Below, one piece after another: positions 738 to 29,498 of a DNA stretch of 64,000 nucleotides. Where the stretch lies: NCBI RefSeq assembly GCF_053078305.1, contig NZ_CP166879.1. One strand, given 5' to 3'. The notes below the pieces were generated by a model. The model was given only the letters and a program-made list of their open reading frames with translations, was not told where the DNA came from and did no database searches. A program made the position numbers and the translations under genes. The first letter of the stretch is position 1; each line of letters begins with the position of its first letter.

Positions 738-2250
738 TGTTTTTATCTCCTTTCATCAACACTGTAACAATACATATAAACATTAATATTATTAAAGATT
801 CTCACCATCAATATTCGCAGTGAATAATGCAGCATCTCATATTCACATCCTGCAGAGAAAACCCCTCCGGAGAGGGGTGAGTGTAGCGTAATGGAGTGTT
901 ATGTAGCATGGTGCCGGGTGCCTCCCGGTGAGTTCAGTATCAGCACCTGAACCCGCACAGATAAGGGATGTGACCAAACACCTACGATACTGATATGCCC
1001 CGCCGCTCAGGGGGATTCACCATGCAGTATTTTTTTAACAAATATCCCGTAAGACCGACAATAATCCACTGACTGAACTGTGAGGTATTTAACATTTACA
1101 GATGACTGACTGTGGTGATCAGAGGTATTACAGTCATCCCCCTGTGGCTGCAGTCCGACCATACCATAACCAGCCATACGTCTTACCCGGAAAGCAAATG
1201 GAGCTTTTTGCCATAAACAACACTCTCCGGCTTCAACAAATGGAGCAGAGAATATCTTCAGAAAGTAACAATCAGTTAAAAACAGATCTTTTTTGTATTC
1301 CGTAAATTTTTCAGAAGAGAAAAAGAATTAATTGTCGCCAACGCCTTCAACAGATCGCATCATCAACGAATGATAACAACCTGAAGGATACCGCGATGGA
1401 GTTGACTGTAGACCTGCTAAAAAACCTTAACAACATCAGACAAAATGCTACTATATATGTTCACGCATACCACTATACTGATGATGAAAAATGCGTTATG
1501 GTGCCACGGATATCTTTACCATCACTGAAATTAACTCCGTTGCAATCAGAAATAATTATTCTGACATCTTCTTAATGGAGTCAATTATATAAGGCACGAC
1601 GGGTATGTTCAGGGATATGAAGAAAAAAATGTGGCAACTTTCACAATACAGGAGGAGGGACACCATCGTTTCAAAGCAGACTTATCACAAAATGGGGAAA
1701 GTGATATAGCCAGCAATGTACTAAATCACTGGCTACATCGTATACATAAAACAGATATCATTGTTCTGTCTGTTGTTCTTACAGAATAAATCCTGTTACC
1801 TCCTGAATGTTACAAGGTTTTATATTTATCCTATGAGCATACGTACGTGAAAACTAATAAAAAAGGCACAACATGGCACATTTTTTACCGTGAAAATTCA
1901 GGCGCGGAAGTTTTGCTTGAAATACCATCATTTCGGGAATGTCTTTCAGTATCTAAAGAATTAATGACCCCATCAAATTACATGATATGCATAGAAAAAA
2001 ATGGCGAAAGAATAAAACGCCGGGACAGGGAAATCATCGCTGGCTCTAACAAATGGATTAACTGCCCACCTGATAACTTCGAAATATCAGGTGAGCTAAT
2101 AACCATTAACAGAATTATTAAAAAGTAACTCCGGATTCAGACAATGCATTAAGCAAGGCACTATAACAAGCAACGGGTTCATTTTTTGCGGGAGAATGCC
2201 TGTAAGATATCTCTGTGCCAGCACTACCCCTCTATTTTTATAAAACACCT

Positions 2251-3068: not shown

Positions 3069-5105
3069 ATGAATATACGCAACAATCATCTACCGGGAAC
3101 AGAAACTCTTTTTTCTGAAACTGAAACTGCGAACAGTAAACAACTTGCTGTTTTGAAAACTAACTTTCCACAGTGTTTCGATAAAAACGGAGCTTTCATT
3201 CAGGAAAAGCTGCTTGAGATCATCAGAGCATCAAATGTTGAAATCTCTAAAGAGTCATACTGCTTAAACTGGCTTGGCAAATCCTATGCTCGCCTGCTGG
3301 CTAACCTACCACCAACGACATTGCTGTCAGAAGATAAAGACCATAACCGACGTGAAGAGAACAAGAACAGTCAAAATCTGTTAATCAAAGGGGATAACCT
3401 TGAGGTATTAAAGCATATGGTTAATGCTTATTCTGAAAAGGTTAAAATGATTTATATCGATCCGCCATATAACACGGGTTCTGATGGGTTCGCCTATAAT
3501 GATGATCGCAAATTTACACCAGAACAGCTTTCTGATCTGGCGGGTATCGATCTTGATGAGGCTAAACGTATACTTGAATTTACCACGAATGGTTCAAGCA
3601 GCCATAGCGCATGGTTAACGTTCATTTATCCTCGTTTATATATTGCTCGTGAGCTTCTACGTGAAGATGGTGTGATATTTATTTCGATTGACGAAAATGA
3701 ATTAAATCAACTTAAAACTATTTGTGATGAAATTTTTGGCGAAGCAAATTTCATAGAAAATATTGTATGGAATAAACGTATCCCTAAAAATGATAAGGGT
3801 ATTGGTAATATCCATGAGTACATCCTTGCTTATGCGAAGAATAACGAAATAAGTAAAGAATTTTTAATGCGGAAAGATGGTATTGATGATGTATATCAGT
3901 TTATTGAAAAGTTAAAAAAGGAAAAGGTGCCATTAGATAAAGCAGAGCAGCAACTCAAAAAATTCTACAGCTCCAACGGATATGATCGTGGAATTACTCT
4001 TTACAACGGTTTGAACGAGGATTATAGGCCATGGGGTAAAATTAATATGAGTTGGCCTAATGCAGATTCATTTGGACCCACGTATGAAGTATTGCACCCT
4101 TTGACTAATAACCCTGTCAAAATCCCAGACAGAGGCTGGCGTTGGAAAGAAGGCACTTTTAATCATATTGCAAAAAGAATAGATGGAAAGTATGCAGATA
4201 TCAAAAAACTACATGATGGTAGCGTTATTTGTGGTGGAATTTGGTTTGCCCGTACAGAAAAAACCCAACCCAGTTCGGTTAAATTTTTAGATGAAGTTGA
4301 AGAGTTTTTACTAAGATCAATTATTTCAACTAAAAGTGATGGTGGTGTTGAGGTTGAAAATCTTTTTGGTGGGAAAGGATATTTCTCCTACCCGAAGCCA
4401 ACAAGTTTAATAAAAACACTATTTGGTTCAGTAAGAACCGAAGATAAAGACATTTATCTTGACTTTTTTGCTGGCTCTGGAACTACAGCTCATGGTATTC
4501 TGGAGTTAAATATTGAAGACGGCAGGAAAAGAAACTTCATCTGTGTTCAATTAGATGAAGAAACAGATAAAAAGAAACAAGCCTATAAAGAAGGGTATAA
4601 ATCCATCTTCAATATAACAAAAGACAGAATTATTAAGGCAGGAAAAAAGCTGAAAAAAGATAATCCTAATTATAATGGAGATTTGGGATTTAAAATATTT
4701 GAAACAGTTCATGATTTTCGAGCGAAAGATGAGTCTGAACTTACGCTTTCTAATCTTAGTTTCTTTGACGATGCTGTATTGACACCAGAGCAGTATGACA
4801 CTCTATTGACGACATGGTGCGTGTATGATGGCAGCTTGCTAACAACACCAATTGAAGATATTGACCTTAATGGCTACAAAGCACACTTGTGCGATGGTCG
4901 GCTATATCTAATTGCGCCTAATTTCACAAGTGAGGCTTTGAAAGCTTTACTTCAAAAGCTGGATGCAGACAAAGACTTTGCCCCTAACAAAGTTGTATTT
5001 TATGGCAGCAACTTCGAAAGTGCGAAACAGATGGAACTCAATGAAGCACTAAAAAGTTATGCTAATAAAAAATCTATTGATTTAGATTTGGTGGTAAGGA
5101 ACTAA
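3069..5105 (+). CDS. mod: type III restriction-modification DNA methyltransferase (Mod), N6-adenine
   Basis: 678 aa; IYIDPPYNTG (DPPY catalytic motif) and FFAGSGTTAHG (AdoMet-binding FxGxG); GGAGG RBS 6 nt upstream of ATG 3069; res follows directly. Confidence 0.9.
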   Translation: MNIRNNHLPGTETLFSETETANSKQLAVLKTNFPQCFDKNGAFIQEKLLEIIRASNVEISKESYCLNWLGKSYARLLANLPPTTLLSEDKDHNRREENKNSQNLLIKGDNLEVLKHMVNAYSEKVKMIYIDPPYNTGSDGFAYNDDRKFTPEQLSDLAGIDLDEAKRILEFTTNGSSSHSAWLTFIYPRLYIARELLREDGVIFISIDENELNQLKTICDEIFGEANFIENIVWNKRIPKNDKGIGNIHEYILAYAKNNEISKEFLMRKDGIDDVYQFIEKLKKEKVPLDKAEQQLKKFYSSNGYDRGITLYNGLNEDYRPWGKINMSWPNADSFGPTYEVLHPLTNNPVKIPDRGWRWKEGTFNHIAKRIDGKYADIKKLHDGSVICGGIWFARTEKTQPSSVKFLDEVEEFLLRSIISTKSDGGVEVENLFGGKGYFSYPKPTSLIKTLFGSVRTEDKDIYLDFFAGSGTTAHGILELNIEDGRKRNFICVQLDEETDKKKQAYKEGYKSIFNITKDRIIKAGKKLKKDNPNYNGDLGFKIFETVHDFRAKDESELTLSNLSFFDDAVLTPEQYDTLLTTWCVYDGSLLTTPIEDIDLNGYKAHLCDGRLYLIAPNFTSEALKALLQKLDADKDFAPNKVVFYGSNFESAKQMELNEALKSYANKKSIDLDLVVRN

Positions 5106-5107
5106 TC

Positions 5108-8020
5108 ATGTCTAAAGGGTTCACATTCGAAAAAAATTTACCTCATCAAAAGGCTGGCGTTGATTCGGTAATGAATGTCTTTGTATCCGCCATACCTCAT
5201 CAGACGGATCATGTTGCAATTCGCCTGTTAGCTAATCCAGAACTGAATCTATCTGAACAACAATACTACAACAACATAAAAAATGTTCAGGAGTTCAATG
5301 GTATTGAGCACTCAAAAGATAATTACGATGCTAAAAGCAACGTAATTGATGTTTCTATGGAGACAGGTACAGGTAAAACTTATACTTACACCAAAACAAT
5401 TTTTGACCTGAACAAATCATTTGGTATTAACAAATTTATCATCATTGTTCCTACCCTATCGATCAAAGCCGGAACCGTTAACTTTTTAAAAAGCGATGCT
5501 ATAAAAGAACACTTTCGAGATGATTACGAGCGTGAACTAAAGACTTACGTTGTTGAAAGTCAGAAAAGTTCGGGTAAAAATACAAAATCGTATATGCCTC
5601 AAGCTATCCATGATTTTGTTGAAGCAAGTAATTTCAATAAGAAATATATACACATTCTTGTGATCAACTCAGGGATGATTAACTCTAAGTCTTTAACTGA
5701 CACTTATGATGTTGGCTTGCTTGATAATCAGTTTGATACCCCATTTTCTGCACTTAGTGCGATAAAACCATTCATTATCATTGATGAGCCTCATAAATTT
5801 CCTACTGGTAAAAAGACATGGGAACATATTCAAAAATTTAATGCCCAATATATCATCCGCTATGGCGCAACCTTTAGTGAAGGCTATAAGAACTTAGTTT
5901 ATCGTCTTACAGCCGTAGATGCCTTCAATGAAGATCTTGTTAAAGGTATTGATGCATACATTGAGGATATAGTTGGTGATGGTAATGCCAACCTCAAGTT
6001 GGTCAAATCTGACGGAAAAGAAGCTACATTTGAACTGAACGAAAATAATAATAAAAAAATTTTTAAGTTAGCCAAAGGTGAATCACTATCTAAGACGCAT
6101 AGTGCGATCCATGATTTAACTCTTGATGCTTTAAATAAGAATACAGCAGTGTTGAGTAATGGTATTGAGCTAAAAATTGGTAGTTCGATAAACCCCTATT
6201 CTTACGATCAGACACTTGCTGATAACATGATGCGTAAAGCTGTCAAAGAACACTTTAAGTTAGAAAAAGAGTATCTGACACAAAGGCCACGCATAAAACC
6301 TCTTACTCTTTTCTTCATTGATGACATTGAAGGCTATCGTGATGGTAATGATATTGCAGGAAGCCTGAAAACTAAGTTCGAAGAATACGTTTTGGCAGAA
6401 GCAAATGAACTGTTAAAAACAGAGAAAGATGAGTTTTACAGAAACTACCTTGAAAAAACTGTTAAGGATATATCTTCTGTTCATGGTGGTTATTTTTCAA
6501 AAGATAATAGTGATAAAGATGATAAAATTGAGCAGGAAATCAACGAAATCCTTCATGATAAAGAGCTTCTATTGTCTTTAGAAAATCCTCGCCGTTTCAT
6601 TTTCTCTAAATGGACGTTGCGTGAGGGATGGGATAACCCAAATGTCTTTCAGATTTGTAAGCTCCGTTCGAGCGGTAGCACCACATCTAAACTTCAGGAG
6701 GTAGGGCGTGGTTTACGTCTTCCAGTGAATGAATACATGTGCCGTGTGAAAAACCGCGATTTTACTCTCAACTATTATGTTGATTTTACGGAAAAAGATT
6801 TTGTTGATTCTCTTGTAAAAGAGGTTAATGATAGTTCTTTCAAAGAAACTGTTCCAGGTAAGTTTACTCAAGAACTTAAGGATAAAATCTTATCTCAGTA
6901 TCCTGAGCTTTCATCCAGAACACTCATGAATGAGATCTTTGATGCTGAAATTATTGATGATAATGAAAACTTCAAAGATTCCGATGCCTATAGCCGTTTA
7001 AAAGCAAAATATCCGGCTGCATTCCCTACCGGGGTGAAACCAACAAAAATAAAAAAAGCCACGGATGGAAAAAAGCGTACTAAAATGCGTATTGGTAAGT
7101 TCAGTGAGTTGAAAGAACTATGGGATTTGATCAATCAAAAAGTAGTAATTGAGTATAAAATAAATAGTGAAAATGAATTCTTATCCATTTTCAAATCATT
7201 CATGATTGAAGAAACAGATAGATTTACTAAATCAGGTGTTCATACTCGCATTGATAGAATTTATATTCATAATGATACGGCGATGTCGAAAAGTATCGTC
7301 AGTGACGATGATAACTTTGCTAAACTAAACACAATGAGCTATCGGGAATTTCTTGATAACTTATCACAAACTATTTTTGCTAAACACGATACCTTACATA
7401 AGGTTTTTTGTGATATAAAAGACACTATCAATATCACCGACTACCTGAACATTCAGACAATCAGAAAGATTAAATCTGGGTTTAGCAAGTATTTGTTGAA
7501 CAATTCATTTAACAAATTCAGCCTTGGATATAATGTAATTTCAGGCTCAATTCATCCTACAAAATTCACTAATGCAGACGGTAATCACCTGCATGAGGTA
7601 TTATCAGGTGATCTTGGAGTATTACAGGATAATACAAAAGCCCCCCTAGACTCTTATCTTTTTGAAGAAGTTTTTTATGATTCAGAGCTTGAAAGACTCA
7701 ATATAACAGACGGAGAGATCCACTCTGTTGCTGTTTTTACAAAGATACCGAAAAACTCAATTAAAATTCCAGTGGCAGGTGGATACACATATTCTCCTGA
7801 CTTTGCTTATGTTGTAAAAACAACAAAGGGTGACTACCTTAACTTTATTATTGAAACAAAAAATGTCGAAGGTAAAGAAAGTTTACGTAAAGAAGAACTG
7901 GATAAAATAAAGCATGCACAAAAACTTTTCGAACAGGTAAGTAAATCTGTAAAAGTAACTTTTATAACTCAATTCTCAGGTGACAGAATCCATGATCTGA
8001 TAAAAAATGTGATTCAGTAA
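5108..8020 (+). CDS. res: type III restriction enzyme Res subunit (SF2 helicase-nuclease)
   Basis: 970 aa; helicase motif I METGTGKTYT and motif II IIIDEPHKF; ATG 3 nt after the mod stop. Confidence 0.9.
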   Translation: MSKGFTFEKNLPHQKAGVDSVMNVFVSAIPHQTDHVAIRLLANPELNLSEQQYYNNIKNVQEFNGIEHSKDNYDAKSNVIDVSMETGTGKTYTYTKTIFDLNKSFGINKFIIIVPTLSIKAGTVNFLKSDAIKEHFRDDYERELKTYVVESQKSSGKNTKSYMPQAIHDFVEASNFNKKYIHILVINSGMINSKSLTDTYDVGLLDNQFDTPFSALSAIKPFIIIDEPHKFPTGKKTWEHIQKFNAQYIIRYGATFSEGYKNLVYRLTAVDAFNEDLVKGIDAYIEDIVGDGNANLKLVKSDGKEATFELNENNNKKIFKLAKGESLSKTHSAIHDLTLDALNKNTAVLSNGIELKIGSSINPYSYDQTLADNMMRKAVKEHFKLEKEYLTQRPRIKPLTLFFIDDIEGYRDGNDIAGSLKTKFEEYVLAEANELLKTEKDEFYRNYLEKTVKDISSVHGGYFSKDNSDKDDKIEQEINEILHDKELLLSLENPRRFIFSKWTLREGWDNPNVFQICKLRSSGSTTSKLQEVGRGLRLPVNEYMCRVKNRDFTLNYYVDFTEKDFVDSLVKEVNDSSFKETVPGKFTQELKDKILSQYPELSSRTLMNEIFDAEIIDDNENFKDSDAYSRLKAKYPAAFPTGVKPTKIKKATDGKKRTKMRIGKFSELKELWDLINQKVVIEYKINSENEFLSIFKSFMIEETDRFTKSGVHTRIDRIYIHNDTAMSKSIVSDDDNFAKLNTMSYREFLDNLSQTIFAKHDTLHKVFCDIKDTINITDYLNIQTIRKIKSGFSKYLLNNSFNKFSLGYNVISGSIHPTKFTNADGNHLHEVLSGDLGVLQDNTKAPLDSYLFEEVFYDSELERLNITDGEIHSVAVFTKIPKNSIKIPVAGGYTYSPDFAYVVKTTKGDYLNFIIETKNVEGKESLRKEELDKIKHAQKLFEQVSKSVKVTFITQFSGDRIHDLIKNVIQ

Positions 8021-15450: not shown

Positions 15451-15706
15451 CCGTTAATAAAGGGCGCAGTTATAAAGAAACCTTCATCGTCATGACTGAC
15501 GATATCTGCTCTCAAAGGTGGGCAGATTTACCACCACCAGAAACATCCTGGCTGCACATCCCCTTTCAGGTTACGGGGGTGTTGATCACCCGAAGGCGTT
15601 CCTCTCAGATCAACGGAACATTGGTGCCCACCGAAGCGGGATGTGGTCACCCGAAGGCGCTCCTCTCAGACCACTTATGGAGCATTGGTGGTCGCCGAAG
15701 CGACAT
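15451..15706. repeat. direct repeat copy 1 (~255 bp) flanking the recombinase cassette
   Basis: near-identical to 17784..18037 by eye; contains tandem ~63-bp hairpin units. Confidence 0.85.
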
Positions 15707-15770: not shown

Positions 15771-15812
15771 ATAAGCCTGTATATTTTTAAATCACAAAAG
15801 ATGAATGTCAAG

Positions 15813-16168: not shown

Positions 16169-17071
16169 TTACTCATAGCCTAACAACTGACAATAAACCT
16201 GTTCAATATATCGTCCTCTGCCATCACCATGACCAAGATCAATTGATGTCAGTGCAAGTGCCTCCTTATAACTGTAACCGTTCATAATATGATATTTCAT
16301 GGCACTTGCAGCGTAACTGTACCGAAAACTGTGTGCAGTCTCATCTCTGCCTTTCAGTTCTCCATAACGACGTAATGTATTAAGATAATAATCCATTGCC
16401 GACTTAAGATTATCTCTGTCTATAAGACGTCCATTATGTTCACTGGCATATTTGAGTGCATAATTAACAGCATCAAGAACGTTATCCCGGTCAACAACCG
16501 TTGTCATTCTTTCCCGTCCCCCTTTCGTACCAAAAATCACTCTTATTTTTTCATCTCCCCGTTGTAACGCTTTTTTCCAGGTTCGTAATGATTTGGCCGA
16601 CTGGATAGCTTCTTCATTTCTCAGACCGAGGTAACGTGACAGTTTAACAACAGCAGCCACCCCTTTATCTTTTGCTTCCACACGCTGAAGAATCTCCCGA
16701 AAACGCTCATCCGTGATTAATTTTTTTGTTCCCTTACGACTGGAGCCGGAAATGCCTAACGCTTTATTGCTGAGACGAGGATGTTCGGGATCAGCCATCT
16801 TATATTTACCTGCCTGACGTAACATAACCCGTATTGCAGACATTTCATTTTCCCTTGTTCGCCCAGAAACATTATTCCGGCTTCTCATATATAGCTCAAT
16901 ATGCCGGACTTTTACCTGCGCGGCAGAACTGATCTGTACATTCATTTTTGCCAGACTTTCAGCAAAGCGGTGCATGATCCTGGTGTAATCACTCAGCTTC
17001 TTGAAGCTGCCTTTGTCTTTTCGAATGTGAGCAACCAGATCCTGTTTCAGTAATTTTTCACGTCTGGACAT
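16169..17071 (-). CDS. tyrosine site-specific recombinase (phage-integrase family, ~300 aa)
   Basis: C-terminal catalytic signature HSFRYSYA ... LGHGDGRGRY (HxxR ... Y) and box-I-like RYLGLRNEE; ORF starts with GTG at 17086, ATG at 17071 has an AGGAG RBS. Confidence 0.85.
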   Translation of the reverse strand: MSRREKLLKQDLVAHIRKDKGSFKKLSDYTRIMHRFAESLAKMNVQISSAAQVKVRHIELYMRSRNNVSGRTRENEMSAIRVMLRQAGKYKMADPEHPRLSNKALGISGSSRKGTKKLITDERFREILQRVEAKDKGVAAVVKLSRYLGLRNEEAIQSAKSLRTWKKALQRGDEKIRVIFGTKGGRERMTTVVDRDNVLDAVNYALKYASEHNGRLIDRDNLKSAMDYYLNTLRRYGELKGRDETAHSFRYSYAASAMKYHIMNGYSYKEALALTSIDLGHGDGRGRYIEQVYCQLLGYE

Positions 17072-17120
17072 CAACTTCTCCTGCACATAATAATTTTTAC
17101 CTTAAACAGCTGTACGTTCG

Positions 17121-17171
17121 GCAGATGAGTTTTTCTGTTGTGCCGTGAACACAACAGAAAAACTCATCTGC
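17121..17171. promoter_or_regulatory. 22-bp perfect inverted repeat upstream of recombinase gene
   Basis: GCAGATGAGTTTTTCTGTTGTG - CCGTGAA - CACAACAGAAAAACTCATCTGC, 50-100 bp upstream of start 17071. Confidence 0.5.
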
Positions 17172-17783
17172 ATTTCTCCCTGACGACACGGTTAAACGTT
17201 GCGATCCTTCGGGTAGTGACTGCCTGTGCGCCAGGGTAGCGCAGATTGTTTAGGTATTGAGGGGTAACAAATCGGTGTTGCACACCGACTGCAGCATTTG
17301 CTGTACCTGTCTCCAGGTCGCCCCCGACACCACCTCTAATAAGTGGTATCGCCGATTCGGCATCTCACTACATAAAACTCCTTAAAAAAACAATTGATTC
17401 TGCAAAAAACCATTTATGGACGTTATTCACAAAATCGTCCGTAAATTTGCAGAAGAGGTTGAAAAAACACTCTCACGCCGGGTCACTTCTTCAAATGTTA
17501 AAAAACATCACGTGAAACGGCAGTTCGTGCGGGTTCGTTAAGCAGACGCGCGTGCGTCACTTTGTCATCGTGACACGCTGACGAAAGTGACGCCGCGCAG
17601 CTTCAGACGCCAGATACACGCGTAAGCGACCAAATTTCAAATGGTCTTATACAGCGCGCACAGTCGCAGGAAGTGCTGGCAAACAAATGAAAAGAATAAA
17701 AGAAGTCAATACCGCCATTACGCAGTAAGAACATTCCGGCATCACCGGATGGATAAGGATCACACAACCACTGCTGTGTATTG

Positions 17784-18037
17784 CCCGTAATAAAGGGCGC
17801 GGTTAAAAGAAACCTTCATCGTCATGACTGACGATATCTGCTCTCAAAGGTGGGCAGATTTACCACCACCAGAAACATCCTGGCTGCACATCCCCTTTCA
17901 GGTTACGGGGGTGTTGATCACCCGAAGGCGTTCCTCTCAGATCAACGGAACATTGGTGCCCACCGAAGCGGGATGTGGTCACCCGAAGGCGCTCCTCTCA
18001 GACCACTTATGGAGCATTGGTGGTCGCCGAAACGACA
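17784..18037. repeat. direct repeat copy 2 (~255 bp) with two tandem ~63-bp units (17913-18037)
   Basis: near-identical to 15451..15706. Confidence 0.85.
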
Positions 18038-18385
18038 GATAATGTATTCTGAGCATATCAGAGCGCATAAAAGGCGTCAATTATCCATGCTCCCTCACGA
18101 AACAGAAGCTGAACTCTTAACACCTGCTATCGGAACTCACTGAATAAACAACTAAAAAGGACATTGTGAAAATTAACATCAACAGTATGTAAAGTGATTT
18201 GTTTTGTCTTAAATGGGTGAATGTAAAAAAATATTCTATACAATCCACACATCCTTGTATCATATATCAAGTAAACATCCACAGAGATAACAGCTTATTT
18301 CAAATAAGCAGATTCTGTTTGATACTTCAGAAAAATAGTATATGCTCCTGATTTACTGATGTTATAAGTTATACAGGATAGTTAA

Positions 18386-20643: not shown

Positions 20644-21601
20644 GTCTTCATCCTCATCAGCAGCTCTTCAGTGGATAACATCCACAGTTACACCTGCATT
20701 TACGCGCAACAAAAACACCAGATGAAGATTTTATTCATTCAGCTCCGCTAAAAATTAATCTTGCTGTGGAATATCGGGAAAACAGGAAGTTACGTTAAAA
20801 GCCGAAGGAAAAACTCACAATCCCTTCTTCAATCAGCCTCTGAAAATCGGCTTTTCAGCATGTCTTCCCCCATTGTTCGTATACCCTGTTCGATGGATTA
20901 TTATTGATCCATATGATCGCTTCACGTAAACACGATTCTGGCTCCACACCATTCTGGACGCGATTGTTACCAAAAAAGACAACCATCACAAGACGTCACA
21001 GACGGTGCGTGCGCTTACTCCTGTATATCTGGCGCAACAGAATCTACCAGTGTAAACTCTCTATGCTTTTGCGCAGAAGCAGTGGGCCTGGGTTCGCTTA
21101 TGTCCTGCATCTACAAGCGAATGACTGACCAGAGACTCCCATATCTGGTCAGTCGCCCATTTTTATTTTCCCTATACACTCAGACTACAATAGCCGTAAC
21201 AAACAGCATACCCCCAGTCATAGTGGCCCCTTTATCTTCTTATGGCTTGTCTGTGGTACTGGAGATAGAGCAACTGTGGGAGTACTGTTATGGCCCCCGG
21301 TAAGAAAAACTCTTGCTTAATGTACAGCAGAACTGTTCCCAGAAAGAAGCCTGTGCATATTTTCATAGAAGGAGATCACCCATAACGGCGTTTTTCACGG
21401 TAATACACGCCAGGTAAAGAATGCTGGATTATCAATCAAAGCTCCGCACAGGAAGCGCTTATGCCGTAGAGCGCCCTCTGGAGAAAAGTGCTACTTCTTG
21501 TCGATTCAGACTAGTTCAGGAAATTATACGAAAATATTACCTGAATGAGCTAAATGTTATTTACCTTCCTTTCTGTTCATTGTAAATTTTTTCTTGCTAA
21601 C

Positions 21602-21620
21602 GCAAATCATTATCATTACG
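21602..21620. promoter_or_regulatory. Fur-box-like sequence upstream of TonB-dependent receptor
   Basis: GCAAATCATTATCATTACG contains AATCATTATC, matching half of the Fur consensus GATAATGATAATCATTATC; about 20 bp upstream of the ATG. Confidence 0.55.
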
Positions 21621-21640
21621 ATTTTAGAAAAGGGAAATTT

Positions 21641-23689
21641 ATGAAGAACAAATATATCATTGCTCCGGGCATTGCCGTGATATGTTCTGCAGTCATATCA
21701 TCAGGTTATGCCAGTTCTGATAAAAAAGAAGATACGCTTGTTGTTACTGCCTCCGGCTTCACTCAGCAACTCAGAAATGCACCGGCCAGTGTTTCAGTCA
21801 TTACTTCAGAGCAACTGCAAAAAAAACCGGTTTCAGACCTGGTCGATGCGGTAAAAGATGTTGAAGGGATTAGTATCACCGGTGGGAATGAAAAACCGGA
21901 TATCAGTATACGTGGGTTAAGTGGCGATTATACATTGATTCTGGTCGATGGACGACGTCAGAGTGGTCGGGAATCCAGACCAAACGGCAGCGGCGGTTTT
22001 GAAGCCGGATTTATCCCTCCTGTGGAAGCAATTGAGCGTATTGAAGTTATACGTGGCCCTATGTCTTCCCTGTATGGTTCCGATGCTATCGGAGGAGTTA
22101 TTAATATCATAACCAAACCTGTTAATAACCAGACATGGGATGGCGTACTTGGGCTTGGGGGAATTATTCAGGAACATGGGAAATTTGGTAACTCAACCAC
22201 GAATGACTTCTACCTGTCAGGCCCATTGGTTAAGGATAAACTTGGTCTTCAGTTATATGGAGGAATGAACTATCGCAAGGAAGATAGTATCTCTCAGGGA
22301 ACACCAGCAAAAGATAATAAGAATATAACGGCAACACTCCAGTTTACTCCGACTGAAAGCCAGAAGTTTGTTTTTGAATACGGAAAAAATAACCAGGAAC
22401 ATACATTAACACCTGGTGATTCTCTTGATGCCTGGACTATGCGGGGAAATCTTAAACAACCAAACAGTAAAAGAGAAACACATAACTCACGTAGTCACTG
22501 GGTAGCAGCATGGAATGCCCAGGGCGAAATACTGCATCCTGAAATTGCTGTTTATCAGGAGAAAGTTATTCGTGAGGTTAAATCTGGTAAAAAAGATAAA
22601 TATAATCATTGGGATCTTAATTACGAGTCAAGAAAACCGGAAATAACCAACACGATCATAGATGCAAAAGTGACGGCATTTCTGCCGGAAAATGTGCTGA
22701 CCATCGGAGGTCAATTTCAGCATGCAGAACTCCGTGATGACTCAGCCACAGGTAAAAAAACGACAGAAACACAGTCTGTTTCAGTTAAACAGAAAGCTGT
22801 TTTTATAGAAAATGAATATGCTGCAACGGATTCTCTCGCCCTGACTGGAGGGCTGCGCCTCGATAACCATGAAATCTATGGCAGTTACTGGAATCCAAGA
22901 TTGTATGCTGTTTATAACCTGACCGATAATCTCACTCTCAAAGGAGGGATCGCAAAAGCATTTCGGGCCCCTTCGATTCGTGAGGTCAGTCCTGGATTTG
23001 GAACACTGACGCAGGGTGGTGCCTCTATTATGTATGGAAACAGGGACCTGAAACCGGAGACCAGTGTAACCGAAGAGATCGGTATTATTTATAATAATGA
23101 CAGTGGTTTTTCAGCAAGCGCGACTCTGTTTAATACAGATTTTAAAAATAAGCTGACCAGTTACGATATAGGCACAAAAGATCCAGTCACTGGGCTAAAC
23201 ACTTTTATTTATGATAATGTGGGTGAGGCAAATATCAGAGGTGTGGAGCTTGCAACTCAGATTCCTGTGTATGATAAATGGCGTGTATCTGCAAACTATA
23301 CATTCACTGACTCCCGTCGAGAAAGCGATGACGAAAGTCTCAATGGCAAGTCGCTGAAAGGGGAACCTCTGGAAAGAACTCCCAGACATGCAGCCAATGC
23401 AAAACTGGAATGGGATTACACTCAGGATATTACATTTTATTCATCTCTGAATTATACAGGAAAACAAATCTGGGCAGCACAAAGAAATGGTGCCAAGGTT
23501 CCCCGTGTTCGTAATGGATTCACTTCTATGGATATTGGTATGAATTACCAGTTCCTGCCAGGCACGCTGATTAATTTTGCCGTACTTAACGTCACAGACA
23601 GAAAGAGCGAAGATATCGATACCATTGATGGTAACTGGCAGGTCGATGAAGGACGTCGTTACTGGGCTAATGTAAGAATATCCTTCTGA
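21641..23689 (+). CDS. ireA: TonB-dependent outer-membrane siderophore receptor (IreA-like)
   Basis: 682 aa from ATG 21641; signal peptide, TonB-box-like DTLVVTA, plug motif IEVIRGPMSSLYGSDAIGGVINIITK, terminal aromatic ...RISF; size and sequence match my recollection of IreA (Iha not excluded). Confidence 0.75.
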   Translation: MKNKYIIAPGIAVICSAVISSGYASSDKKEDTLVVTASGFTQQLRNAPASVSVITSEQLQKKPVSDLVDAVKDVEGISITGGNEKPDISIRGLSGDYTLILVDGRRQSGRESRPNGSGGFEAGFIPPVEAIERIEVIRGPMSSLYGSDAIGGVINIITKPVNNQTWDGVLGLGGIIQEHGKFGNSTTNDFYLSGPLVKDKLGLQLYGGMNYRKEDSISQGTPAKDNKNITATLQFTPTESQKFVFEYGKNNQEHTLTPGDSLDAWTMRGNLKQPNSKRETHNSRSHWVAAWNAQGEILHPEIAVYQEKVIREVKSGKKDKYNHWDLNYESRKPEITNTIIDAKVTAFLPENVLTIGGQFQHAELRDDSATGKKTTETQSVSVKQKAVFIENEYAATDSLALTGGLRLDNHEIYGSYWNPRLYAVYNLTDNLTLKGGIAKAFRAPSIREVSPGFGTLTQGGASIMYGNRDLKPETSVTEEIGIIYNNDSGFSASATLFNTDFKNKLTSYDIGTKDPVTGLNTFIYDNVGEANIRGVELATQIPVYDKWRVSANYTFTDSRRESDDESLNGKSLKGEPLERTPRHAANAKLEWDYTQDITFYSSLNYTGKQIWAAQRNGAKVPRVRNGFTSMDIGMNYQFLPGTLINFAVLNVTDRKSEDIDTIDGNWQVDEGRRYWANVRISF

Positions 23690-24362
23690 GAGAATATAGA
23701 TAACCTGAGGCCGTGCGCCTCAGGTACCAGTATAGTAATCAGTAACGTCAGCTTCCAGGTTGTAATGCTTTTAATTTTGATAAAAATAAACTTAATAAAT
23801 TACATTTGTTAAATATTGATAATTTTAATTTGGTTTTATTACTCCAGTTATACTCACACTCTATCTTTACACAATTCATCACCATTACACCTCCATAGCC
23901 TGTTGATTTAAAAGATTTAATTTCCTGTGAAACAATCAGGCCTGTATGAACCTGATTATACCACAGAATCTTTTAAGTTATTTAAATTTAACTCTCGGGC
24001 TTTTCTGTCAGTAAAATCAGAAAAATTGCAGGATTTCGTTTTTTTTGCTGCGAAGTGAAATGTATCTCATTTTTACTGCCTTCGCCAGTGCGTCAGGCAA
24101 TGGCAGGTAGTGTACCTGCATTCTGCTGTAACGCGTAATGTCGGGTAGTTTACTTAAACTTAATATGTTTTATGTTTGCATTATTATAAATCACTTTATT
24201 GCCTTTTGTCTGCTTTTTAATGGTTCCCGTTTTGTTCACTTCTGGCTTTATAAAAAATGGATGCTGAAGAAATGAAGGTAGTCCACCTTACATAATATTC
24301 ATGCATGATTTTTATGCTATTCCGACTGAGTGGAAGAAAATAAAGGAGAAAAGAGGGTATAT

Positions 24363-27300
24363 ATGAACCTCAGAAAAAAACATATCTGTATAGCCATATC
24401 ACTTGTTCTTAATCCGGCATCCATATCACAGGTCAGTGCTCAGGCAGATACAAATAAGTTAACTGTTGAAGTTGATGAAACCAGCCTTGGCCATGATGTC
24501 TATGGCGATGACTGGAAGAGCATTGAAATAGGTACAACGAAATTTACAGCAAAAGATGAATCAAAGGGAATTAATTTCGACCATAAATCACCGGTGGCTG
24601 AAGGACGTAACTCTATCGCGATTGGTACCAGTGCAGAGGCTGGAGGTGACATTAGCACGAAGGAAGGTTTGTACACAGGCGAGTCTATTGCGATAGGAGC
24701 GAAAACGAAAGCAACTAAAGAACAGTCAATTGCAATAGGTGGCGATACCAAAGCTACCGGATGGGGGGCTATTGTTATTGGTGGGGATGATTTAACTCCT
24801 TTGCATGGTAAGACTTATGGTCGGGAAAAAATAGAGAATGGCTATCTTGCATCGGAAGCGCAGGGGGATGGCAGTATTGCGCTGGGCAGCAGAACTTTTG
24901 CTAAAGGCGAATTGTCAGTATCGCTTGGTTCGGTGAGTTCTGCTGAGGGGATGGCCTCGAATGCAATTGGAGCCACGGCGGAAGCTAAAGGGGATATGGC
25001 GACTGCGGTTGGTTTTAATGCGCTGGCTAATGCCGGTAATGCTCTGGCCGTTGGTAGTCAGTCCTCTGCAAATAAAAACGATGCTCTTGCTGTTGGTTCA
25101 GAGGCAAATGCCGCTCAGAATGAAACGGTTGCCCTGGGGCATGGAGCAACCGTTACTGTCGCAAAGGGGAACGTGTCCATCGGCGCTGACTCCAGGGATA
25201 AGCAGGCACAAAAAGTAACAGAGGCTAAGGTCAGAACTAAAAGAGGCGCGGAAGTCACATATAGTGGCTTTGCCGGAAATAACGCAGCATCAGTAGTATC
25301 TGTTGGTGATGCGGGTAAAGAGCGTCAGATTGTTAACGTGGGGGCGGGTGCGATTTCTGACACAAGTACAGATGCCATTAACGGTAGTCAGTTATATGCG
25401 ATAGCGAAGACACTGAAAGATGACCTTGATGCCATTAATCCGACGTGGACGCTAAAGGATGATAAGGGAGGTTCTGCGACTATTAATGGTGGGAAGGATA
25501 ATAAGAATGGTAACACTTTAACTGTTAAAGGTGATGGAGATATTGCAGTTACTGTTAATGATAAAGGAATGACGATTGACGGAACAACGCTGAAAAATGA
25601 AATAAAAAATGATGCCATCAAAATTAAAGGTGGAGATGGTAAGACGCTGACGAAGAGTCTTGGTGACAATGTCGAAATCACTGGCAAAGGCCCAATAAAA
25701 ACCCAGGTGGCTGGAGATAAACTGGAGATTTCAGCAGAGACAGCTTCGTTGCCTGTAAATGGTGGTAACGGGAAGATTACAGTAAACAATGGTGATGGCG
25801 ATAAACTTGTTACTGCGAAAAACATTGCTGATGCCATAAACCAGTCTGGCTGGAAAATTAAAGCGGATAAAGATACCGGTGGTGTTATCGAGGGAAATGG
25901 TCAGGGAACAGAAACACTGATAAAACCCGGTGATATGGTTACGCTGAAAGCCGGTAAAAATCTCAGCGTGAAACAAAGTGGTGGTGATTTTACATTCTCT
26001 GTTATTGATACTCCGTCATTCAGCAGTGTTCAGCTGAATGGAAAAGGAAATAACGGAAGTGTAACGCTCTCATCCGAAGGTAATAAGCTGACATTGTCAG
26101 GCGGTAATGGTGCCGGACAAAATGGTGTTGTTATCAGTGGTGTGGCAAGTGGACTGGAAGGTAAGGAACTTTCGACGTTAACGAATACTGATAAAGAGAT
26201 GAAAAATGCCGCCAGTGTTGCAGACCTGAAAACGGCAATTGATGGTGTGTCCTCCAGTATGCAGGGTGCAGGTTTCGCACTGAAAGACTCTGATGATAAG
26301 GAAGTGAAACAGTCTCTTGGGCAGGCGATTAAAGTATCCGGGGACAGCAATATCACCACCACAGCCATCACCAATGGGGATAAGGGGTTAAAAATATCCC
26401 TGAATAATGACCTGAGCGTTGGGAGCAATAATACTCCCGGCAGCATCAAAGTTAACGGGGCTGATGGTAAGGAGGCTGTGAGTCTGAATGGTCAGGATGG
26501 CACGATTAAACTGACATCCTCGCCTGCTGCGGGTGGAAAGTCTGCGTCAGCAACCATTGCTGTTAATGCAGGCAAAGGTGGATTAACAGATGCTGCCGGT
26601 ACCACGAAGACACGTCTGACTTATACCCCGGATGGAAAATCACCGGCAGAAGAGCTGGCGACCATGAATGACGGTCTTTCTTTTGAGGGTGATGACGGAA
26701 AGGTTATTCATAAAAAACTGAATGAAAAACTGACCATCAAAGGTGGTGCAGAGAAGAATGCTGAAGTGACTGACGGCAATATCCGGGTTGATAATGATAA
26801 TGGCGGGCTTCTGGTGAGGATGACCAGAAACCTCCGTGATTTGGCCAGCGCGGTTTTTGGTACAGGTGGGCAGATAACAACAGTTAATGATAAAGGCATC
26901 ACAATCACAACACCTGCTGCGGGCGGTGGTCAGGGGAATACGGTTTCCCTTACCGGCTCCGGCCTGAATAACGGTGGAAATCAGATAACCAGTGTGGCCA
27001 GTGGTCTGAACGGCACTGCGCTTGCTGACGCCGGTGGAGATGTTCTGAATAATGCGGCCAATATCGGTGACCTGAAAAATGCTCTCCGTGACAGCAGTGC
27101 GGCACTGGTGAATACCGGCTTTGGTCTGCAGGCGGATGACGGAAGCAAGGTGAACACGTCTCTCGGGAAGCATATCACGGTTGGTGGTGACGGGCAGAAT
27201 ATCAGCACGACTGTTCAGAACGGGAGCCTGACGGTCAGACTCGCTGATAACATTCGCCTGGGAGATGACGGCAGTGTTTCTGTCGGCGGAACCCGGATGG

Positions 27301-28694
27301 ATAAAAACGGACTGACCATCAAGGATGGCCCGTCAGTGACTGTGAACGGTATTGATGCGGCTGGCCGGGTTATTTCCGGCGTGAAAGACGGGGTGAATGA
27401 CCAGGACGCCGTTAACGTTTCACAACTGAACCGTGAAATCAGTCAGGCAACGGCAGCAACGACCTGGGCACTGAAGACTGAATCCGGTGATGAGGCTGTT
27501 GCTGTTTCCTCCCAGACGGTTGAAGTCCGTCACGGACAGAATACCCGGGTTTCAGCCATCAGTAAGGATGATAAGGGAAATTACAGCTATGAGATTGATG
27601 TGACGGGGATTCCGGTGGAGTACACCGACAGCCAGGGGAACCCGCTTGTCAATATTGGTGGTCGTTTTTACACACAGACCGAAGATGCTGCGACCGGGAA
27701 ACTGACAATGACGCCGGCTGAGCCGGCCCGTGTCAGAATAAGCAGTGAGCAGCCTCTTGTTCTGACAAATGTGGCGGCCGGAAATGTGTCACCGGTATCC
27801 ACGGATGCGGTTAACGGGAGCCAGCTGGCATCTGCAGCCAGAATTGCTGGCGGTGATAATGTTGTCTGGAAAGACGGAAAAGCAGCGCTGGCTCCTGACA
27901 CCTTCAGTGAGCTGACAACTGCAGGTGGCGGTAAGACAACGGTGAATGGTGGTGTACATAAAACACCGGATAATGTGGCTGATGCAGTGAATATGCTGAA
28001 CCGTGAAGGCACGAAGTATTTTAAAGCTGCCTCTTCCGGTCAGGCAGCAAAAGCGGAAGGGCGTGACAGTATTGCTGTCGGACAGGGGGCCGTTTCCCGG
28101 GGACAAAACAGCATTGCCATGGGTAATGGTGCTGAAGTCACGCGTCAGGCTGCTGCCGGCTCTGTTGCAGTTGGCAGCCATGCCCGTGCTGGCCGCGCGA
28201 ATACCGGGACTTATGCCCTGAACGGTCAGGCTGTTGCGGGACGTACCGGAAGTGATACTGCGGTGGTTTCTTTTGGTCAGCCGGGACAGGAGCGTCAGCT
28301 GCAGTCAGTGGCACCGGGTGTGTTGTCTGCGAATTCAACGGATGCCGTCAATGGCAGTCAGTTGCATGCAACTAACCGTCAGGTTGCCGGAAATACACAG
28401 GCGATAAACACCCTCGGGAATAAATTCAGTCAGCTGAGCTACCGGGTGGAAGAGCTTAACCGGGATATCCGTGGTGTTGGTGCATCGGCTGCGGCCATGA
28501 GCGGGATACCTCAGGCCTATCTGCCGGGTAAAAGTCTGATGGGGCTGGGTGTCGGTGGATATGGTGGTGAAAGCGCCATTGCAATAGGGGTGTCCCGAAT
28601 CTCCGATAACGGTAAGATGATAATGAAACTGAATGCAGGTCAGAACACCCGGGGTAATTTCTCCGTCGGTGCCGGTGTGGGCTGGCAGTGGTAA
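24363..28694 (+). CDS. trimeric autotransporter adhesin (YadA-like anchor)
   Basis: 1443 aa from ATG 24363 (ORF opens at 24330); signal peptide; recurrent neck motifs DAVNGSQL / AINGSQLYA; YadA-type C-terminal anchor ending GVGWQW. Confidence 0.85.
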   Translation: MNLRKKHICIAISLVLNPASISQVSAQADTNKLTVEVDETSLGHDVYGDDWKSIEIGTTKFTAKDESKGINFDHKSPVAEGRNSIAIGTSAEAGGDISTKEGLYTGESIAIGAKTKATKEQSIAIGGDTKATGWGAIVIGGDDLTPLHGKTYGREKIENGYLASEAQGDGSIALGSRTFAKGELSVSLGSVSSAEGMASNAIGATAEAKGDMATAVGFNALANAGNALAVGSQSSANKNDALAVGSEANAAQNETVALGHGATVTVAKGNVSIGADSRDKQAQKVTEAKVRTKRGAEVTYSGFAGNNAASVVSVGDAGKERQIVNVGAGAISDTSTDAINGSQLYAIAKTLKDDLDAINPTWTLKDDKGGSATINGGKDNKNGNTLTVKGDGDIAVTVNDKGMTIDGTTLKNEIKNDAIKIKGGDGKTLTKSLGDNVEITGKGPIKTQVAGDKLEISAETASLPVNGGNGKITVNNGDGDKLVTAKNIADAINQSGWKIKADKDTGGVIEGNGQGTETLIKPGDMVTLKAGKNLSVKQSGGDFTFSVIDTPSFSSVQLNGKGNNGSVTLSSEGNKLTLSGGNGAGQNGVVISGVASGLEGKELSTLTNTDKEMKNAASVADLKTAIDGVSSSMQGAGFALKDSDDKEVKQSLGQAIKVSGDSNITTTAITNGDKGLKISLNNDLSVGSNNTPGSIKVNGADGKEAVSLNGQDGTIKLTSSPAAGGKSASATIAVNAGKGGLTDAAGTTKTRLTYTPDGKSPAEELATMNDGLSFEGDDGKVIHKKLNEKLTIKGGAEKNAEVTDGNIRVDNDNGGLLVRMTRNLRDLASAVFGTGGQITTVNDKGITITTPAAGGGQGNTVSLTGSGLNNGGNQITSVASGLNGTALADAGGDVLNNAANIGDLKNALRDSSAALVNTGFGLQADDGSKVNTSLGKHITVGGDGQNISTTVQNGSLTVRLADNIRLGDDGSVSVGGTRMDKNGLTIKDGPSVTVNGIDAAGRVISGVKDGVNDQDAVNVSQLNREISQATAATTWALKTESGDEAVAVSSQTVEVRHGQNTRVSAISKDDKGNYSYEIDVTGIPVEYTDSQGNPLVNIGGRFYTQTEDAATGKLTMTPAEPARVRISSEQPLVLTNVAAGNVSPVSTDAVNGSQLASAARIAGGDNVVWKDGKAALAPDTFSELTTAGGGKTTVNGGVHKTPDNVADAVNMLNREGTKYFKAASSGQAAKAEGRDSIAVGQGAVSRGQNSIAMGNGAEVTRQAAAGSVAVGSHARAGRANTGTYALNGQAVAGRTGSDTAVVSFGQPGQERQLQSVAPGVLSANSTDAVNGSQLHATNRQVAGNTQAINTLGNKFSQLSYRVEELNRDIRGVGASAAAMSGIPQAYLPGKSLMGLGVGGYGGESAIAIGVSRISDNGKMIMKLNAGQNTRGNFSVGAGVGWQW

Positions 28695-28718
28695 CAGGGA
28701 AAAGCAAGGAGAAATGTA

Positions 28719-29498
28719 ATGTTATTTAGTCGAATGATGATGACGGGTGTGCTGTCCCTGATGCTTGCAGGATGTGGAAATCTGAGTCATGTCACGGATG
28801 AAGGAACGACGGAAGAAGTGGTATGGCCTTCTCCGGAGAAGGTGATGTTTAATCATGACGGAACACAGAAAGGTTCGTGGCCACTGCCAGAAAAGTTACG
28901 TCAGATAAAGGCGGGTATGAATAAGGACCAGATTTATCAGCTGGCGGGGAGACCACACTTTGCTGAAGGGATGTCTGGTGTAAGGGAATGGGATTACCTG
29001 TTCAACTTTACCGGACCGGAGGGGGATTATACCTGCCAGTACAAGATACTGTTTGACCGGAACATGGATGCCCGCTCTTTCTACTGGAAGCCGGAAAACT
29101 GTCTGCCGGAGGCAGAGACAGCAGAATACAGGGAGTCAGTCCCCGGTGATATATTATTTGATTTTGATTCATGGACTCTGACAGAGAGGGGGCGTGATGC
29201 GCTTTCCCGTGTGGCAGAGAAGTTTCAGGCGGGTCATGTTGTCGGGGTGAAGATAGAAGGATTTACGGACCATCTTGGCGGGCAGGCGTATAACCGGCTC
29301 CTGTCAGAGAAACGGGCGGAATCAGTCAGGGGGTGGTTTATTGCCCGGGGATTCAGGGCTGAAAGGATACATGCAACGGGCCGTGGATATGATGCACCAG
29401 TGGTGTTCTGCCCGGATGTGGAGGGCGAAGCACTGAAGGAATGTCTGCGCCCCAACCGCAGGGTTGAAATAACCGGGGAAACATCAGTGACTGATTAA
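28719..29498 (+). CDS. OmpA-domain lipoprotein, TpgA-like partner of the adhesin
   Basis: 259 aa; lipobox LAGCG; C-terminal OmpA-like peptidoglycan-binding region (GFTDHLG ... NRRVEI); AGGAG RBS, 24 nt after the adhesin stop. Confidence 0.7.
   Translation: MLFSRMMMTGVLSLMLAGCGNLSHVTDEGTTEEVVWPSPEKVMFNHDGTQKGSWPLPEKLRQIKAGMNKDQIYQLAGRPHFAEGMSGVREWDYLFNFTGPEGDYTCQYKILFDRNMDARSFYWKPENCLPEAETAEYRESVPGDILFDFDSWTLTERGRDALSRVAEKFQAGHVVGVKIEGFTDHLGGQAYNRLLSEKRAESVRGWFIARGFRAERIHATGRGYDAPVVFCPDVEGEALKECLRPNRRVEITGETSVTD

Follow-up and report, generated by a model that had tools for sequence, protein, structure and literature searches.

The region upstream of a recombinase-like gene in the stretch of DNA that we analysed (64 kb, hereafter the window), which is part of an MPF_G-type integrative conjugative element (ICE) of E. 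coli, is, in the interpretation we favour, a MOB_M-type mobilisation module's non-coding half, consisting of an oriT (origin of transfer) together with a structured RNA; we put the probability of this reading at about 60%. The region is real and functional-looking, and it is not a new kind of object, being the EFASI/STAXI-bearing oriT region of MOB_M/MPF_G elements. Its two inverted repeats (IR1, next to the gene, and IR2) had been noticed in an earlier, sequence-only reading of the window; they differ in role, and the region belongs to a larger STAXI-IR2-EFASI module, two points that this reading had missed. The region forms the core of a conserved module of roughly 1 kb that lies upstream of the recombinase-like gene in a family of conjugative islands. 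Relative to the literature we examined, three points appear to be new: EFASI, STAXI and an invariant bulged hairpin (IR2) belong to one promoter-driven unit; this unit is, by analogy with SGI1, a natural candidate for an "oriT plus transfer RNA"; and small plasmids carry the unit on its own.

Layout of the module in the window and in related loci

The sequence-only reading had delimited a structured non-coding region of about 680 bp (17101-17783). That it is non-coding was borne out, as no ORF of 60 aa or more lies within these limits (the largest has 54 aa, with a TTG start); its extent was underestimated, since the gene-free interval runs from 17072, beside the ATG of the recombinase-like gene at 17071, to ~18385. 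The additional part contains a STAXI element (17872-18037) and a promoter-like site (18052-18080). Both repeats are present where they had been placed, and both are non-random, as judged by the complementarity of their arms and by pattern counts in the 64-kb window. The features are as follows (positions in the window).

15476-15641, minus strand: second STAXI copy, downstream of the PF12835 gene (75.7 bits, gathering score 40.5)
15783-15811: promoter of the second STAXI copy
16169-17071, minus strand: gene of a 300-aa PF12835/PF12834 "Integrase_1" protein (ATG at 17071; PF12835 186 bits)
17078-17082, minus strand: Shine-Dalgarno AGGAG of the PF12835 gene, read from the sequence caGGAGaagttgATG
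17121-17171, minus strand: IR1, a perfect 22-bp hairpin (arms 17121-17142 and 17150-17171) with a 7-nt loop, UUCACGG
17170-17371, minus strand: EFASI with a conserved 3' extension of ~45 nt (...AACCGTGTCGTCAGGG); 106.8 bits with the extended model R1; alignment A2
17214-17371, minus strand: EFASI (RF02957) as matched by the Rfam model (53.2 bits, gathering score 51.2)
17542-17605, no strand assigned: IR2, an extended imperfect hairpin and candidate oriT core, with perfect 10-bp arms at 17554-17563 and 17584-17593
17583, plus strand: 1-nt bulge of IR2
17628-17656, minus strand: conserved block between STAXI and IR2, sense strand CTGTATAAGACCATTTGAAATTTGG (from a 17-sequence alignment; boundaries approximate)
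17817-17836, minus strand: last hairpin of STAXI, terminator-like
17872-18037, minus strand: STAXI (RF01728; 91 bits, gathering score 40.5), with which the primary transcript is predicted to begin (5' end)
18052-18080, minus strand: sigma-70-type promoter, TTGACG-17-TATGCT with TG before the -10 element
Downstream of the PF12835 gene: ArdC, DUF1281 and an N6-methylase gene
18.4-55 kb: cargo genes
55-60 kb: TraG_N and TraU genes

Neither TraI nor a helicase gene adjoins the methylase gene in the window, and because both are missing there the window copy may be a decayed element. A megablast comparison of the region with phages gave no match.

EFASI stands for "Enterobacteriaceae, Frequently Around STAXI and Integrases"; according to the Rfam text quoted in PMC12370729, its place is between STAXI, which lies several hundred bp upstream, and integrase genes downstream, and its function is unknown. 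Both families are entered in Rfam as sRNA genes of unknown function. The window matches are bona fide and arranged as Rfam describes, with EFASI following STAXI after 500 nt and preceding the PF12835 gene. The EFASI of the window is a divergent, E. coli-type member of its family (copies in other genera score 65-88 bits), and the conserved element is longer than the Rfam model, reaching ~45 nt past its 3' end; we therefore refer below to R1, a covariance model of EFASI that includes the conserved 3' extension. The two inverted repeats fall outside both Rfam models, IR2 between STAXI and EFASI, and IR1 between EFASI and the gene.

The same layout recurs in related loci. A profile-based scan, taking one genome per species, yielded 80 Enterobacterales loci encoding relatives of the 300-aa protein. 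All 19 loci scanned with Rfam share the order STAXI, spacer of ~450 nt, EFASI, PF12835 gene and second STAXI. An nhmmer profile found EFASI in 59 of the 80 loci, and in the rest of the loci searched R1 picked up divergent copies in the corresponding position (L066-L085, 15-42 bits), L063 excepted, so that EFASI or a divergent relative occupies this position in essentially all 80 loci. Coding potential was also considered: a small ORF was sought at the conserved AGGAG box that precedes EFASI, where no start codon proved to be conserved, and the ATG-TAG frame of the E. coli type is lineage-specific; a small hydrophobic ORF in the STAXI-IR2 spacer, spotted by eye, failed on translation.

The adjacent gene and module copies that lack it

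The product of the PF12835 gene is a putative relaxase of the tyrosine-recombinase type, belonging by sequence comparison to the MpsA (MOB_M-like) family. MpsA of SGI1 itself matches PF12835 (43.5 bits, cut-off 23). The window protein aligns with MpsA in BLASTP (E = 4e-5; ~33% identity over 58 residues) and in hhalign (probability 90% over 186 columns), with the alignment centred on the GLRxEE and GTKGGRxR motifs. Searches of the protein or its profile against NCBIfam and PDB sequences gave no matches. We know of no MOB_M system whose nic site is known. MpsA is tyrosine-recombinase-like and has been proposed, with experimental support, to be an atypical relaxase (PMC6414798). According to a 2026 preprint (10.64898/2026.01.13.699239), no other relaxases are as common on chromosomes as those of the MOB_M class (TcpM, MobK, MpsA), which are linked to MPF_G ICEs and are frequently annotated as integrases.

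The suggestion of the sequence-only reading that the region is an attachment or recombination site was therefore near in spirit, in that the neighbouring protein belongs to a family of tyrosine-recombinase-like relaxases and IR2 is best read as the site at which that system processes DNA (oriT); in the classical sense it found no support, as IR1 occurs without a second copy and is lost in the gene-less copies described below, and the arms of IR2 are 20-22 bp apart.

The module interval also occurs on MOB_H/MPF_G conjugative plasmids of the plasmid collection, for example pEB102, where the order is rep, module, PF12835 gene, ArdC-like gene, DUF1281, methylase, UvrD-like helicase and TraI. Elements of this family encode a MOB_H TraI as well as the PF12835 protein, and in the SGI1 system TraI raised transfer a thousand-fold (PMC6414798). 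The enzyme acting at the candidate site IR2 could then be either the PF12835 protein or the MOB_H TraI.

The full promoter-STAXI-IR2-EFASI unit is also carried, with no integrase or relaxase gene, by three small plasmids with unrelated replicons:

3.1 kb, E. coli: Rep_1 rolling-circle plasmid
5.6 kb, Pantoea: plasmid with Replicase/PriCT plus Rop
7 kb, Rahnella: ColE1-type plasmid (RNAI)

That three replicon types captured it independently speaks for a function of the unit's own. In addition, a copy that is 77% identical to window positions 17180-17676 is present in some 600 genomes of E. coli, for the most part O157:H7 and other STEC; at the one locus examined (O157:H7 strain PA20), this copy lies in the tellurite/urease island (TAI), where the gene is absent. 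Such gene-less occurrence matches the pattern expected of oriT-only hitchers. This agrees with the preprint cited above, where the O157 TAI islands are described as relaxase-less carriers of an oriT, and where their oriT region shares 60% identity with the oriT that experiments have localised in ICE SGI-4 (10.64898/2026.01.13.699239). In the portions that concern these islands, the oriT is equated with the intergenic stretch upstream of the relaxase gene; its hairpins are not dissected, and it is not linked to EFASI or STAXI.

The two inverted repeats

IR2 is the most conserved feature in the alignment of the whole interval. The longer arms given for it in the sequence-only reading, GCGTCACTTTGTC and GACGAAAGTGACGC, are correct, provided that one bulged base is allowed: beyond the perfect 10-bp arms, three to four further pairs follow past the single bulged base, with a GC-rich outer stem and an inner 4-bp stem. 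The pattern GCGTCACTT-N15-35-AAGTGACGC occurs once in the 64-kb window (0.00 expected), and 76 of 85 loci have GCGTCACTT-N-AAGTGACGC exactly once, in a copy that lies 300-530 nt upstream of the gene; IR2 is thus a conserved inverted repeat near a putative relaxase gene, one per element, as an oriT should be. From E. coli to Xenorhabdus, the 9-bp arms are identical in all sequences, and the tenth pair alternates between T-A and G-C. The bulge is always one base and always on the same arm, and the inner stem beyond it is kept in spite of its differing sequence. Over the alignment, 94% of the cells are paired, with nine invariant and three covarying pairs; changes on both sides of a pair occur in 32 cells, against 10.7 in shuffled alignments, and none of 500 shuffles was as good. 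G-U and A-C combinations are equally frequent (41 vs 40), and with this lack of wobble asymmetry the counts do not tell whether IR2 acts as a hairpin, or on which strand. Judged from its sequence, with invariant arms and a kept hairpin and bulge, IR2 has the look of a hairpin site recognised by a protein, unlike an ordinary RNA helix. We hold the identification of IR2 as the oriT core at even odds.

An operator had been a further candidate of the sequence-only reading. Two invariant, inverted 9-bp half-sites at constant spacing, free of wobble asymmetry, would suit an operator in duplex DNA, bound by a dimeric regulator that controls the module promoter or the downstream gene. A duplex operator, however, has no use for the covariation of the inner stem or for a 1-nt bulge conserved on one arm; moreover, the promoter is ~450 nt and the gene 300-530 nt away from IR2, which is kept on plasmids that share no common candidate regulator. 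We consider such an operator very unlikely.

A hairpin at the core of an oriT has a precedent in the gonococcal genetic island, which like the present family encodes a MOB_H TraI, and whose oriT likewise has a stable hairpin of ~32-40 nt as its recognition element (PMC6736028). The two differ in that the structure of the gonococcal hairpin matters and its sequence does not (PMC6736028), whereas IR2 is invariant in sequence.

IR1 proved to be the perfect 22-bp inverted repeat that had been described at 17121-17171, with arms that are 100% complementary. It lies ~50 nt upstream of the start codon; the 19-nt pattern of its arm, with up to three mismatches, finds only the two arms themselves in the 64-kb window (0.01 expected), and the RNA fold of 17072-17220 has a z-score of -5.1. 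Homologous perfect hairpins of 18-22 bp are present in 15 loci, with a conserved UUCAC... loop and ten different stem sequences, and all stem changes among these loci are compensated, barring one G-T pair (in L057, a class-A member). Most of the other loci with a definable interval have a different stem of ~20 bp at the same position, just before the ribosome-binding site, while in a few loci the interval is very short and has no stable hairpin. Many of the non-homologous stems carry G-U pairs on the gene-sense strand: at the IR1 position, 49 of the 55 unique sequences have the sense strand as the better-folding one, and G-U pairs number 216 against 49. The folding bias toward the sense strand is -4.9 kcal/mol, compared with -2.6 in shuffles, so that about half of it is compositional.

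The conservation of the repeats among related elements, which the sequence-only reading had proposed to compare, differs between the two: IR2 is conserved outright, and the IR1 stem is kept by compensation where the gene is present and lost where it is not. Since IR1 is missing from the gene-less copies, it goes with the gene or with the end of a transcript, and not with a cis-acting core. We predict that IR1 is a hairpin at which the non-coding transcript ends or is processed, or else one in the 5' UTR of the gene. An intrinsic terminator was rejected, as the AT-rich stem leads into CGAACGUACAGC, with no U tract. A kissing contact of the IR1 loop (UUCAC) with that of IR2 (GUGAA), considered by eye, fits some loci and fails in L048 and in the window.

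We also weighed whether IR1 is a lox/FRT-like core site of the adjacent tyrosine recombinase, with an asymmetric spacer of 7-8 bp between perfect inverted arms, serving multimer resolution or inversion. Such sites have arms around a spacer of 6-8 bp, as IR1 does in the window (22-bp arms, 7-bp spacer); across the loci its perfect arms of 18-22 bp, spacer of 7-9 bp and place directly upstream of a recombinase-like gene fit this geometry, and from one element to another both arms vary together and almost never form wobble pairs, as two identical half-sites bound by protein would. Yet a partner site is absent from the 64-kb window, the repeat is not conserved across the family (most loci have unrelated, imperfect hairpins that are rich in G-U pairs on the sense strand), L057 has a G-T pair, and the protein belongs to the family of MpsA, an atypical relaxase. 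Of all the alternatives considered, we find this one the least probable.

A probable promoter-driven unit and its resemblance to SGI1

The -10 element of the promoter at 18052-18080 ends 16 nt upstream of STAXI. Of 20 loci, drawn from many genera, nearly all have TTGAC(G/A)-16/17-TAnnnT at this distance 5' of STAXI, where it is kept although the flanking sequence is not conserved; the second STAXI copies are likewise preceded by it. For EFASI, consensus pairs are predicted on both strands, and G-U against A-C combinations number 42:13, which favours folding of the gene-sense strand. (Single-sequence minimum free energies of the two EFASI strands were uninformative, and the counts over shared consensus pairs were used instead.) EFASI has been detected by RT-qPCR in the cDNA of an STEC strain (PMC12370729), and the published primers match exactly the gene-less, O157-type TAI copy. 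Together, the conserved promoter, the wobble count and the primer match suggest that EFASI is an RNA rather than a DNA element. The proposal of a non-coding RNA gene, which the sequence-only reading had listed among its candidates, thus gained support from the EFASI score above the gathering score, the conserved promoter upstream and the gene-sense wobble asymmetry. STAXI would be the 5' end of a primary transcript that crosses IR2 and EFASI, and we infer that the three are transcribed as a single unit.

Part of this evidence would also suit a long structured 5' UTR or cis-regulatory RNA with no oriT function, in which STAXI, IR2, EFASI and IR1 together control elongation, stability or translation of an early "establishment" operon (recombinase-like protein, ArdC, DUF1281 and methylase). 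The conserved promoter stands immediately 5' of both STAXI copies, STAXI ends in a terminator-like hairpin, all elements are on the strand of the downstream genes, and in most loci a hairpin with sense-strand bias precedes the ribosome-binding site. Against this, the module is intact on the three small plasmids and in the TAI island, with no gene behind it in the same orientation. In addition, the nine invariant base pairs of IR2, with no wobble pairs among them and with diverging surroundings, are more typical of a DNA site recognised by a protein than of a helix in RNA. An RNA-only leader seems unlikely to us.

Another possibility is that the structures act in single-stranded DNA, in the transferred strand, as priming sites (ssi/sso) or as ssDNA promoters for conversion of the incoming strand or early expression. 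Weinberg and colleagues reportedly suggested an ssDNA role for STAXI. The idea is also raised in Rfam's own text, and it suits the neighbouring genes, which are typical of leading regions (ArdC, orphan methylase), the several STAXI copies per element, and the presence of the module on a rolling-circle plasmid, a type that needs a single-strand origin. Against it, an ordinary double-strand sigma-70 promoter stands at a fixed distance 5' of each STAXI; the strand that folds is the gene-sense strand, and not the template strand that an Frpo-type ssDNA promoter for these genes needs; EFASI and IR2 are single-copy; and in the ColE1-type plasmid L088 the sense strand of the module is, judging from the position of RNAI, not displaced by leading-strand synthesis. 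We regard a role in ssDNA as distinctly improbable.

The reading as an oriT with a structured RNA draws on SGI1, whose module sequence (L092) we took from a Salmonella record in the plasmid collection. The oriT of SGI1 is a 125-bp region rich in inverted repeats, 300-430 bp upstream of mpsA (Kiss et al. 2019, PMC6414798), and mobilisation of SGI1 also requires an RNA, sgm-sRNA (Nagy et al. 2021, PMC9299015), which derives from a primary transcript of 650-700 nt that starts at the promoter P5 (ttgacg-16-taatat). Soon past its start site this transcript contains a terminator-like hairpin; it then crosses the oriT, continues through the functional core of sgm-sRNA between oriT and mpsA, and ends near a hairpin beside the mpsA start codon (PMC9299015). 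The order on one strand is thus the same in SGI1 and in the window: promoter, hairpin, oriT (here the candidate IR2), structured RNA core, hairpin by the start codon, and PF12835 gene. The RNA core of SGI1 and EFASI both lie between oriT and gene, behind a strong upstream promoter.

The resemblance is one of layout and protein family. Neither the Rfam models of EFASI and STAXI nor R1 matched the SGI1 module at E-values up to 1, and homology between the two modules is undetectable at the level of nucleotides or RNA structure. Since these models find nothing in L092, EFASI is not a member of the sgm-sRNA family and can be said only to "work like" it; that EFASI is the counterpart of sgm-sRNA is an analogy resting on position and protein family, and not on RNA homology. 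The two systems also differ in that SGI1 has separate MpsB and S022 ORFs, and in that SGI1 is a mobilisable island dependent on IncA/C plasmids, whereas the module of the window resides in an MPF_G element of the self-transmissible type.

A mechanism along these lines would run as follows. The sigma-70 promoter at ~18052-18080 would drive a minus-strand transcript of ~0.9 kb, with STAXI first, then IR2, then the structured EFASI RNA; this transcript would end or be processed at IR1, just before the MpsA-family gene's ribosome-binding site, and IR1 would serve gene expression or RNA maturation. As DNA, IR2 would be the cis-acting site, the oriT core, that the relaxosome recognises, and EFASI, as the counterpart of sgm-sRNA, would act in trans or in cis as an RNA needed for transfer. 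A stronger version, in which EFASI, possibly with STAXI, is the RNA component of the MOB_M relaxosome and a structured RNA across the oriT is generally needed, is tentative, and we consider it possible but doubtful. If it is true, hitchers, whether plasmids or islands like the O157:H7 TAI, owe their success to carrying an oriT together with its RNA gene, the single case of the SGI1 sgm-sRNA becomes a widespread principle, and two orphan Rfam families gain a function.

That no relaxases are commoner on enterobacterial chromosomes than those of MOB_M has come to light only recently, and the characterisation of their oriTs has hardly begun. For these systems the present analysis points to IR2, a sequence-invariant hairpin, as the likeliest recognition site, and makes EFASI (described in 2017) and STAXI (2010) parts of one unit, presumably transcribed together, around that candidate site. 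The unit is also seen to travel by itself, both with small plasmids and with pathogenicity islands. If the SGI1 precedent holds, an RNA requirement for transfer would be general in a large class of ICEs bearing genes for virulence and metal resistance, and the module would mark mobilisable DNA that current relaxase-based tools miss.

Gene-less module copies and apparent remnants

Of the three small plasmids that carry STAXI-IR2-EFASI without an integrase or relaxase gene, two have a gene for a protein of about 135 amino acids: L087 (2811-3212) and L088, a ColE1-type plasmid (729-1139). The two proteins are homologous, and their genes converge on EFASI from its 3′ side. Both contain an HTH_17 (excisionase-like) domain, together with a sub-threshold match to rep_pAB02_ORF2; they could be accessory DNA-binding factors, or could merely be part of the replicon. 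Large plasmids of avian E. coli, namely pE32-3 (6005-6204) and several of 90-190 kb, also carry fragments of EFASI or STAXI between IS elements; these fragments look like remnants.

Sequence around the start codon and the 5′ end of EFASI

All related loci carry a purine box, AAGGAG, some 8-12 nt ahead of EFASI (17372-17390, minus strand, in the window). In the E. coli type, ATG-TAG comes next, a start codon with a stop immediately after it; no conserved ORF follows the box in the related loci outside this type. On the plus strand, TGGACA-18-AATAAT at 17065-17094 resembles a promoter, with 10 of 12 matches, and overlaps the relaxase-like gene's start codon. Transcription from it would enter IR1 and EFASI in the antisense direction, but the site could be a chance match, since four promoter-like sites were found versus 2.7 expected.

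Other features of the window

The window holds a second STAXI, another RNA match, and the following genes:

852-1054, minus strand: STnc100 sRNA (Rfam, 138.7 bits; gathering score 47)
3069-8020, plus strand: type III restriction-modification pair (678-aa methyltransferase-like protein and 970-aa endonuclease; NF012027, 1073 bits)
15476-15641, minus strand: second STAXI (Rfam match)
15783-15811, minus strand: promoter of the second STAXI (TTGACA-17-AAAAAT), immediately after a 107-aa ORF
21554-29498, plus strand: part of the cargo that separates the module from the T4SS genes: a TonB-dependent receptor, a 1454-aa trimeric autotransporter adhesin and an OmpA-like TpgA-type protein

Further hairpin repeats resembling STAXI precede the second copy's Rfam match on the 5′ side, so this copy appears to be longer than the model. 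The STnc100 match is strong and distant from the STAXI-IR2-EFASI module; STnc100 is typically linked to prophages. The restriction-modification pair occupies the position that a UvrD-like helicase and a MOB_H traI hold in related elements; thus, this copy of the ICE may be rearranged or decayed.

PF12835 and MOB_M relaxases

MpsA of SGI1 (L092, 4230-5195) exceeds the gathering cut-off of PF12835, "Integrase_1"; this Pfam family therefore appears to represent, at least in part, MOB_M-type relaxases rather than integrases.
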